A stretch of 64,000 bases of DNA from a virus (Duplodnaviria > Heunggongvirae > Uroviricota > Caudoviricetes), in IMG/VR virus record IMGVR_UViG_646311923_000012; one strand, given 5' to 3'. The position numbers are program-made. How positions within the stretch are numbered: the stretch's first letter is position 1; the number at the start of each line of letters is the position of its first letter. Shown piece by piece: positions 9,001 through 12,000 of this stretch.

Positions 9001-12000
9001 TTGGGGGAACGCCAAAGCTAAACCATTGCCAAACAGTCTGTTGAGCGACCCCCATATAACGACCTATTTCAGCCTGAGTGTATTTCTGCCTAATTTTTTC
9101 GCGAGTGCTATCTAGCATTTTGCCCTCCTCTAAAAACTATAAGCAAAGCCTACAATAAAAAACTGTATGCAATCAACAGTTTTTTATTGTGATGCTTTTA
9201 ACAGTATTTACCTGTAAAATTGAATAATGATGAGCGCCCTAGAAGTATCTATGTACAGAATCAGCAAGCTTCTTCAGGAAACTGGATGGAGCCAGGCTGA
9301 GCTTGCCCGTAGAATTGGTGTGACACAACAAACTGTTCAACAATGGGTCAGCGGTAAGGCTACACCTAAAGCCTCAAGTTTGGATAAACTGGTTGAGGTT
9401 TCAGGGCATCCATTGCATTGGTTTTTATTGCCTCCTGAAGAGTGTGAGCAAATTTTCACCCCTGACACGATGAAAATTGGTCCTCGCCAACGCGAACTGC
9501 TCCAAGCTTTTAGTGCGTTTCCTGAGGAAGACCAAGAAAAAATGCTTCAAGAAATCAAAGACAAGAAAAAATCAATGGAAGAAACCATTGCTAGGTGGCT
9601 GGCGGCACAAAAAAGCCGCCGGGCGTGACCACAGTACAAGAAGAGGAGTTATGCCATGGGTACAGCCCTTTCTCCGATAGTTTCAGAATTCGAAACTACC
9701 GAACAAGAAAACAGTTACAACGAATGGTTGCGCACTAAAGTAACGTCAAGCCTTGCAGACACTCGCCCCGCAATTCCACATGACGAGGTAATGGCTGAAA
9801 TGGAAAATCTTATTGCTCAAATTGCTGTAACTAACAAGAGCGAGTAATGTTACCCATTTTATGGCTACCGTCTGCTCGCGATGATTTGCGCCAGATCATA
9901 ACTTACATCGCCAAGGAGAACCCACCGGCAGCACGTAGACTAAAAATACGCATTGAAACATCGGTATTACCTCTATCTGAGCATCCGTACTTATATCCAC
10001 CAAGCGAACGGGTTTCTGGATTGAGAGAGATCGTGACCCACCCTAACTACATAATCCTGTACAGAGTAGCTGCTTCAAGCATTGAGATTGTAAGCGTGAC
10101 ACATTCTCGGCGACAATTTCCCTTCTCTATCTGAGTTGAACAATTTTCATACTCCCTCTTTCGAGGGATTTTTTTGCCCAAAACAACAATTAAAAACTGT
10201 TGACACAAAACAGTTTTTAATTGTAGATTACATAAACCAACCACCCACCCCGCCCCACAGAACGCCGGGCAATACTTCGAGTTACCAAGCAGTGGTCAGG
10301 GGGTAAGTAGCCAGCCCGAGGCGTATGAACATGACGGCAGGGTTCAACTTTAATAACTATGCAGCAGGTTTTTGTTCCGCTACCCGGCGTTAAGGGGAAA
10401 TGAGGTCAACATGGATACTATCGATCTTGGCAACAACGAATCTCTGGTGTACGGCGTGTTTCCCAACCAGGACGGTACATTCACCGCGATGACGTATACC
10501 AAAAGCAAAACGTTTAAAACCGAAAATGGTGCCCGTCGCTGGCTGGAAAGAAACTCAGGTGAGTGATATGGATTTCGACACAATCATGGAAAAGGCTTAC
10601 GAAGAATACTTCGAAGGCCTTGCCGAAGGCGAGGAAGCTCTCAGCTTCAGTGAGTTTAAACAGGCGCTTTCCAGTTCGGCAAAATCTAACGACTAACGGA
10701 GTTAAAGATGGAATTTAAAGATTTACTAAAAGAAATCCAGGAAATTGCAGCACATGCACTTCACCAACGTCTGAACGAAGTTGAATTAGAATCTGCAACG
10801 AAGAAATACATTGATAATATGGCTCGTAATGTGCGCGATGCGTTTACCGGATTGTACTCTGTTTCGGTAACAAACAACCAGAATACTGAAGAAACTGCAA
10901 AGCGGATTGCCTCGGTGATGGGTTTTCATGTCGAGGAAAAGTATTCAAAAAAAGAATTCTGGAAAACTACAAAAAAATTGCAGAGCGAGAACTGTCATCT
11001 CCTGCGGCAATCGCTTCTTTCTATGAGGAAAGTTATTCAGATGACACAGGATTACCGGAACTGCTCTCATTACTTGAAAAATTCGGAATTATCATGAAAG
11101 GGACTGCGTCGGCGGATTTCACATACTCAATGATGGCTGCTGATGGAGAGCCTTTTCCTCCCGAACTTAAAATAACCCCCGGCAATCATCCGATGGTAAC
11201 AATAAGAGCAATAGAGAATTACTGGTTTAATCCAGTTCAACAATAGTTGGTCTTTGCAATATTTTTAATGGGCCACTACGCCCTTAATCTCGGGCGGCGT
11301 TTAACTCTTTATTCAGTAAATCAGACTGATACTGATTTGGCTTTGTAATGATACTGTCAAGTTTTGATATATGAAATTCAACATGTTCTGGACAGTTAAA
11401 AATGTAATAACCGCCCTTCTCTAAAAAGCCAGAAAGAGCGTTACAGGCAGGGCATGGTTTGTTTGGCATTTTATCCTCCATTAAGGGCTGAATTAAAAAT
11501 GGAGACCAACACGCTGCTACGTGTGGTCGTGCGCCGGACACAGATAAGAATCCGGCACTGACAGTTTACTGAAAGGATATATCCCTGAAAAGTCAGGGCA
11601 TAACACGAAAGTGCACGGCGAAGTCCTTCTCCCTTAGAGCCGTCGTTAAATTTAATTCGACCGTGCGCTTCCGGTTGTGGCAATCCGCGAAATGGCGCGG
11701 CGGTAAGTATGGCGGGGTTATTCTTTCCCCGTTGAGGACACCGGGTTGTCAGGTTGACCATACGCTTAAGTGACAACCCCGCTGCAACGCCCTCTGTTAT
11801 CAATATTCTGGTGACATTTGGCGGTATCAGTTTTACTCCGTGACTGCTCTGCCGCCCTTTTTTAAAAGTGAATTTTGTGATGCGGTGAATGCGGCTCAGC
11901 GCACGCGGAACAGTTAAATCGGTAAAGCGGTCATTTGCTGAGTAACGAGAATGCTCTGTATCCGGCGTTAATTGTTAACTGGTTAACGTCACCTGGAGGC

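Follow-up and report, generated by a model that had tools for sequence, protein, structure and literature searches.

A fixed one-base deletion in an A8 tract as the probable source of a reading-frame switch in the third gene of a dicB/DicF-type prophage operon

The rates of slippage published for A-rich motifs vary widely. Sharma et al. (2014) found that heptamers without stimulators shift up to about 10-fold above a background of about 0.055%, listed A_AA.A_AA.A among the motifs exceeding 0.10%, and reported that AAAAAAA is under-represented in E. coli genes, with transcriptional slippage or a high indel rate as possible reasons (PMC4066793). For C-AAA-AAA in a vector for T7 overexpression, Belfield et al. 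(2007) reported that 25-60% shifted by -1 (PMC1851650). Bacterial cases of transcriptional slippage involve runs of about 9 or more A or T (PMC5009743), and compensatory frameshifting on fixed indels has also been described (Atkins et al. 2016; PMC5009743). A lambdoid early operon with the layout of the one analyzed here is known from the Qin prophage of E. coli K-12, where it reads ydfA-ydfB-ydfC-dicF-dicB-ydfD (PMC5069750).

The locus analyzed here lies in a 64,000-nucleotide stretch of viral DNA (Caudoviricetes), referred to below as the window. Over this region, the window and O157:H7 chromosomes of E. coli, PV15-279 among them, are 100% identical. The layout of the locus was compiled from the RefSeq annotation of the PV15-279 copy, an ORF listing and Rfam, and is given in Table 1. 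The overlapping palindrome and promoter-like site (10186-10229) form the probable operator and promoter of an operon made up of ydfA, ydfB, the flagged gene, DicF and dicB. By position, the flagged gene is therefore the third gene of the ydfA operon, as the initial annotation had described it, but it does not take that place as a homologue of ydfC. BLASTP against K-12 YdfC (b1573) returned an E value of 0.4 over 12 residues only, and the two proteins fall into different PHROGs, with YdfC in phrog_1744 and the flagged gene in phrog_1363/2151.

Table 1. Features of the locus, in coordinates of the window
Feature	Position	Strand	Description
Helix-turn-helix repressor gene	9227-9628	+	
relB/relE pair	9656-10134	+	
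Palindrome	10186-10224	+	16-bp arms; overlapped by promoter-like site
Promoter-like site	10200-10229	+	TTGACA-18-TAGATT; overlaps palindrome
ydfA (DUF1391)	10412-10566	+	Upstream, same operon
ydfB	10569-10696	+	Immediately upstream of flagged ORF, same operon
Flagged ORF, frame 0	10708-11097	+	ATG at 10708; 129 aa and stop at 11095-11097; RefSeq hypothetical protein WP_000394511.1
Codons 1-90	10708-10977	+	Collinear with residues 1-90 of intact 179-aa relatives
First A7 run	10947-10953	+	TCA AAA AAA GAA = S K K E; in-frame; not the lesion site
Second A7 run	10971-10977	+	ACA AAA AAA TTG in frame 0; putative site of 1-nt deletion
Relic of C-terminal 89 codons	10977-11246	+	IAERELSS...NPVQQ and stop, -1 frame
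Out-of-frame tail of 129-aa product	10978-11097	+	39 residues, LQSENCHLL...NSELS, and stop
50-aa ATG ORF within relic	11094-11246	+	
DicF small RNA	11806-11857	+	Rfam RF00039, 77 bits; downstream
dicB and DUF1482 gene	Downstream of DicF	+	
Exonuclease	12513-14984	+	
339-aa ORF	15272-16291	+	Position where related loci carry an integrase
Predicted peptides			-1 product, junction-spanning and downstream: IAERELSSPAAIASFYEESYSDDTGLPELLSLLEK; frame-0 tail: LQSENCHLLR

The initial annotation had drawn attention to a 129-aa ORF passing two A_AAA_AAA heptamers, after which the -1 frame stays open for about 100 codons to near 11246 with no plausible start, so that a fusion of about 180 aa could be formed. 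This description of the frames was borne out. The ORF contains exactly two A7 runs. Each is an A_AAA_AAA heptamer whose phase would permit slippage by -1, and slippage on either of them leads to a -1 frame that is open for 118 codons (10890-11243, with the stop at 11244-11246), 89 of them past the second run. No ATG, GTG or TTG occurs in this frame from 10890 to 11093, the first start being the ATG of the 50-aa ORF, and the -1 fusion at the second run computes to 179 aa, with EFWKTTKK directly followed by IAERE at the junction. The plus strand of the 64-kb window holds 16 runs of seven or more A; two A7 runs only 24 nt apart are unusual, and this spacing is accounted for by KK...KK coding in an A-rich gene.

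Relatives were sought by protein search with the conceptual fusion as the query. The closest, P0001, is a single ORF of 179 aa with 94% identity to the repaired 179-aa sequence over 100% of its length. It is followed by P0002 (179 aa, 84% identical), P0003 (180 aa, 80%) and P0004-P0009 (177-186 aa, 63-70%), all of them likewise single ORFs. The intact gene was also found at the same operon position in the complete genomes of strains K_EC180, ETEC6334 and A19, the first two having more distant alleles of 186 aa, and a pattern scan of metagenome contigs added one A8/179-aa allele (L015) along with one A7/129-aa copy, the latter 99.96% identical to the window across 8 kb. In P0001-P0009, K_EC180, ETEC6334, A19 and L015 alike, the gene is one continuous ORF of 177-186 aa. 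Two independent genes with their own start codons, the arrangement that the initial annotation had named as speaking against a split gene, are not what the orthologues contain, as the alignment shows one gene. A pattern scan of the GTDB representative genomes yielded no match, and a phage collection held nothing beyond a 25%-coverage match in phage Evi.

DNA of the three nearest intact alleles, in five copies (three independent Logan contigs of P0001, the GenBank contig of P0002, and A19), was aligned to the window. At the second run, all five copies read CAAAAAAAATTGC, an A8 tract inside a single 179-aa ORF, and the surrounding sequence in each of the five is ...GGAAAACT(A/G)CAAAAAAAATTGCAG..., whereas the window reads ...CAAAAAAATTGCAG, with A7. 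A fourth A8 allele, that of the metagenome contig L015, contrasts with the A7 of the window in the same way. When one A is added back to the second run, collinearity with the homologues is restored at full length, and a -1 shift at 10971-10977 would join the frames in a sequence identical to that of P0001. In K_EC180, a more distant allele whose DNA was also read, the second-run position carries GCCAAACGCATC with no A run. The first run is A7 in five of the six relatives whose DNA was read, the exception being A19, which has TCGAAAAAAG (A6). Judged from these alignments, the frame change belongs to the second run only and the first is an in-frame Lys-Lys pair; the proposal that the frame switches at both A7 runs thus holds for the second, which is A8 in the nearest intact relatives, and not for the first.

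We put the probability at roughly 0.88 that this frame switch represents a fixed, single-origin deletion of one base (A8 to A7) in a prophage gene, and not a programmed event. Among the explanations offered in the initial annotation, it is the homopolymer indel that agrees with the comparison, as the tract in the nearest intact alleles is one A longer than that of the window (A8 against A7) and the orthologues are single ORFs. No A8 copy was found on the exact N-terminal haplotype of the window, and the ancestral state is read from alleles with identities of 94%, 84% and 80%.

The A7 state is stable in hundreds of genomes. An 88-mer spanning both runs in the A7/A7 form was identical in 383 of the 385 complete E. 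coli genomes carrying the allele, one of the two exceptions having a substitution at 10957, and the exact A8 or A6 version was present in none of the 385. Carriers include O157:H7 (EDL933, TW14359, Xuzhou21), O121:H19, O103 and O111:H11 strains as well as pig and fish isolates. In an O121:H19 strain and in pig strain NJS001, the gene module recurs with identical protein accessions. The N-terminal haplotype (MEFKDLLKEIQEIAAHALH...KKY) is the same in every A7 copy, which indicates a single origin. The persistence of A7 in 385 genomes of several serotypes could mean that the allele is tolerated or even useful, although copies that are about 100% identical offer no power to detect selection.

This distribution also bears on two further explanations that had been put forward. 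One is an error of sequencing or assembly in the window, such that the true sequence would be A8 and the gene intact. Homopolymers are error-prone, and a public assembly (GCA_008122345.1) does contain an A6 variant, P0011 (105 aa). Within 3.3 kb, this copy differs from the window by five single-A indels, a signature typical of long-read homopolymer error. The presence of the same A7 in 383 independently sequenced complete genomes and in one metagenome contig, however, reduces the chance of such an error in the window to practically nil. The other explanation is phase variation, in which the tract would flip reversibly within populations between an A8 form that is on and an A7 form that is off or truncated. 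Homopolymers do act as hot spots for indels, and frameshifted variants of other alleles are known across the two runs (P0011, P0017 and P0018), those at the first run being P0017 and P0018. Reversible switching is nonetheless most improbable with 383 of 385 genomes identical at A7/A7 and no tract-length polymorphism among the 385, and with the examined A6 copy lying in a typical stretch of long-read error. An A7 tract is, moreover, short for a contingency locus.

The sequence downstream of the second run was compared among alleles. Because dN/dS for the part after the run is 0.20-0.25 between distant intact alleles, at a dS of about 1.2-1.4, the C-terminal part is taken to be genuine coding sequence in intact alleles. 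The relic in the window is identical to P0001 at 267 of 271 nt, and the four differences, two synonymous and two non-synonymous, give this comparison no power regarding selection on the relic. At the position HP(R/K)V the relic has M where nine other intact sequences have R (eight) or K (A19's own DNA), a weak hint at a single residue that would be compatible with relaxed constraint. That the -1 frame is still open is expected of a recent deletion and says nothing on selection. The frame equivalent to the 39-residue tail closes after 9 codons in allele A19, and the frame-0 tail is therefore not a conserved coding sequence; dual coding of this tail was rejected for the same reason.

Another way to read the downstream frame is as a second gene, with the 129-aa ORF followed by a separately initiated 50-aa protein from the ATG at 11094. 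Such an ORF is present, and at least one public annotation calls it: P0121 (50 aa), a separate call of the 11094 ORF by some gene callers, is 96% identical to P0001 residues 130-179. Homology to the intact proteins, however, runs unbroken from the A run (10977), 39 codons before this ATG, and the methionine is internal in the relatives (GIIMKGT). In addition, the 50-aa ORF is not called by PGAP, and the 20 nt before the ATG (TTGAAAAATTCGGAATTATC) contain, as judged by reading, at best a weak ribosome-binding site (GGA). Independent initiation of this kind accordingly has very little probability, about as little as phase variation.

A programmed -1 ribosomal frameshift was the last of the explanations in the initial annotation. 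Slippage on A_AAA_AAA would then be selected to yield two proteins, one of 129 aa in frame 0 and a trans-frame one of 179 aa. The heptamers themselves are suitable, as both are in phase with frame-0 codons AAA AAA and both open into the -1 frame; A_AAA_AAA is used by some IS elements and exceeds background without stimulators (PMC4066793), and 383 of 385 genomes have the split allele in unchanged form. Against this, every other haplotype is one continuous ORF with A8 or no run, and the two-frame layout is not conserved among the diverged homologues, occurring only in a single haplotype that is nearly clonal. Nor is the second run itself conserved, as it is absent from the K_EC180 allele. Folds of 10978-11060 and 10954-11030 were compared with shuffled sequences (z = +0.59 and -0.06), and neither rose above the controls, so no stimulatory RNA structure was found in these intervals. 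On reading, no clear Shine-Dalgarno-like motif is seen in the 20 nt upstream (GAATTCTGGAAAACTAC), and the frame-0 tail lacks conservation as described above. Taken with these observations, a programmed shift is very unlikely, if marginally less so than phase variation or a second gene. The runs are also shorter, at 7 nt, than the approximately 9 or more A or T of a transcriptional slippage site.

Rescue of the deletion by low-level slippage on the A runs is possible, and nothing points to its being selected. Because 25-60% shifting has been reported at C-AAA-AAA (PMC1851650), the amount of full-length product could exceed the 0.5% or less that is expected from stimulator-free reporters (PMC4066793).

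Further comparison of the protein shows what the truncated product would retain. An N-terminal module of residues 1 to about 50-85 (MEFKDLP..IQEIAAH.LRQRL...DNMARNVRDAFTGLY) recurs in prophages of E. coli and Salmonella, where at least six unrelated C-terminal parts follow it. As the second-run deletion falls past this shared module, the 129-aa product keeps the module whole, and the truncated protein may retain partial activity. Sequence searches of Pfam, NCBIfam and PDB returned nothing significant that would indicate a function, and PHROGs gave matches only to families of unknown function. When 1.84 billion representatives were searched exhaustively with HMMER, the C-terminal part had no relatives outside its own cluster; the hits outside the cluster share the N-terminal module only. 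AlphaFold2 prediction of P0001 from a 31-sequence alignment was poor, with a mean pLDDT of 51 and a value of about 75 only for residues 1-55, which form a helical hairpin. In PHROGs, the match of phrog_1363 spans the whole frameshifted product (residues 1-129, 172.8 bits) but only residues 1-92 of the repaired protein (129.4 bits). The out-of-frame tail has thus become part of a public family profile.

The deletion that we consider most probable can be set out as a sequence of events. The third gene of a dicB/DicF-type early operon of a lambdoid prophage would once have encoded a 179-aa protein. On the haplotype that O157:H7 has in common with several further lineages of E. coli, the A8 tract would then have lost one A, changing ACA AAA AAA ATT to ACA AAA AAA TTG, with replication slippage as the likeliest cause, and the deletion would now be fixed in this haplotype. 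Standard decoding of the present sequence would yield 129 aa, consisting of the original residues 1-90 and 39 out-of-frame residues, with most ribosomes presumably terminating at 11095-11097. The last 89 codons would still be present farther downstream, in the -1 frame, as a relic that is young and has hardly mutated. As the lesion is in an in-phase A_AAA_AAA run, a -1 slip by a minority of ribosomes, or the addition of an A by RNA polymerase, could remake the exact ancestral protein.

It is conceivable, at a probability low in itself and only slightly above that of a programmed shift, that the A7 allele is kept for two products, an abundant 129-aa protein with the N-terminal module and a small, tuned amount of the 179-aa protein made through either heptamer or through an A added by polymerase. 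If so, the early operon of a widespread STEC prophage would have turned a recent indel into a dnaX-like switch of expression, and the locus would be a natural case of a slippage-rescued indel in a prophage early operon that encodes DicF and DicB; no result of the analysis speaks for this. Under the simple deletion, the value of the result lies mainly in annotation. WP_000394511.1, a 129-aa hypothetical protein in hundreds of genomes of O157:H7 and other STEC, would be the product of a frameshifted 179-aa gene, and recognizing this keeps one from pursuing a protein family or a recoding site that does not exist. The event is of an ordinary kind and adds another example of a homopolymer frameshift allele.

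In its surroundings, the locus resembles the K-12 Qin operon in the order of repressor, ydfA, ydfB, a third small gene, DicF, dicB and a DUF1482/ydfD-like gene (PMC5069750), and differs from it in that the third gene is unrelated in sequence to YdfC and a relB/relE pair is inserted upstream. With the -1 frameshifting of dnaX and IS1/IS3-type elements on A_AAA_AAG or A_AAA_AAA (PMC4066793) it shares an in-phase heptamer and an open -1 frame downstream. Unlike in those systems, no hairpin or pseudoknot was found, nor, on reading, a clear Shine-Dalgarno-like element; homologues do not conserve the two-frame layout, and the slippery run is, on the alignment, the remnant of an in-frame A8.

Two further comparisons concern indels that are read through by slippage. 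In the 'savior indel' of the G7 run of herpesvirus thymidine kinase (PMC5009743), as here, an indel lies in a homopolymer, and slippage on the run would restore small amounts of the original protein, although the present locus gives no sign of rescue or of its selection. In Gateway pDEST17 (PMC1851650), an AAA-AAA lysine pair like the one found here lets single-base deletions be read through in E. coli; there, the 25-60% shifting was obtained under T7 overexpression at a site near the start codon, whereas the present gene belongs to a repressed prophage operon to which such levels may not transfer. The homopolymer-tract frameshift alleles of prophages, in which slipped-strand deletion gives rise to truncated genes or pseudogenes, share with this locus the loss of one base in a mononucleotide run, intact relatives that differ only in tract length, and a downstream frame that is still open since the event is recent. 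The locus departs from them in being listed in RefSeq as a plain hypothetical protein and not as a pseudogene, and in having a truncated product that keeps a complete and widely shared N-terminal module.

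The gene encoding the frameshifted 129-aa product (see table) is strongly mosaic. Its 5' portion encodes an N-terminal module that is conserved and spans about 50 aa (MEFKDLP..IQEIAAH.LRQRL..DNMARNVRDAFTGLY). At the same operon position in different prophages, this module is joined to six or more C-terminal parts that are unrelated; proteins carrying the module include P0019, P0051, P0053, P0087, P0105 and P0113. When compared with PHROG family 1363 (139 positions), the frameshifted product matched end to end with 172.8 bits, whereas the 179-aa repaired protein, with one A restored, matched over residues 1-92 only (129.4 bits). 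This public protein-family profile therefore appears to have taken in the out-of-frame tail. A small antisense ORF lies directly 3' of the relic, the C-terminal 89 codons now in the -1 frame; in intact relatives, an antisense ORF of 80 aa extends approximately 20 nt into the 3' end of the gene.

The O157-like public assembly GCA_008122345.1 (VIFR01000002.1) differs from the window by five single-A indels within 3.3 kb; the frameshifted proteins that result, among them the 105-aa A6 variant P0011, are spurious. In the fish isolate E105 (NZ_CP071375.1), ydfA and the start of ydfB are missing just 5' of the same deletion-bearing A7 allele as in the window; they were removed by an element of the IS3 family, for which a programmed frameshift of its own is annotated.

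Features of the window outside and within the mosaic gene
Feature	Position	Strand	Remarks
sok antitoxin RNA	2872-3046	-	
relB/relE (ParE-type) toxin-antitoxin pair	9656-10134		between repressor gene and ydfA-dicB operon promoter
Terminator-like hairpin	10153-10168		after relB/relE pair
Palindrome with promoter-like site	10186-10229		16-bp arms (ACAATTAAAAACTGTT...AACAGTTTTTAATTGT), overlapping promoter-like TTGACA-18-TAGATT
Gene for 129-aa product	10708-11097		
Conserved N-terminal module	10708-10860		
Small antisense ORF	11284-11541	-	annotated 61-aa hypothetical protein, CxxC motifs
STnc100 sRNA	50009-50181	-	
tRNA cluster	50951-51202	-	

RNA genes in the window were detected with Rfam and ARAGORN. 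As tRNA clusters of the kind found here (Arg-tct, Arg-tcg and Met/Ile-cat) are typical of lambdoid late regions, this three-gene cluster suggests that a second prophage segment may reside within the window.

Upstream of the mosaic gene, the palindrome and the promoter-like site that it overlaps likely represent the operator and promoter for the entire ydfA-dicB operon. The relB/relE pair preceding them distinguishes the window from both the K-12 Qin prophage and the prophage of K_EC180, a strain with an intact 186-aa allele, each of which is without this pair.
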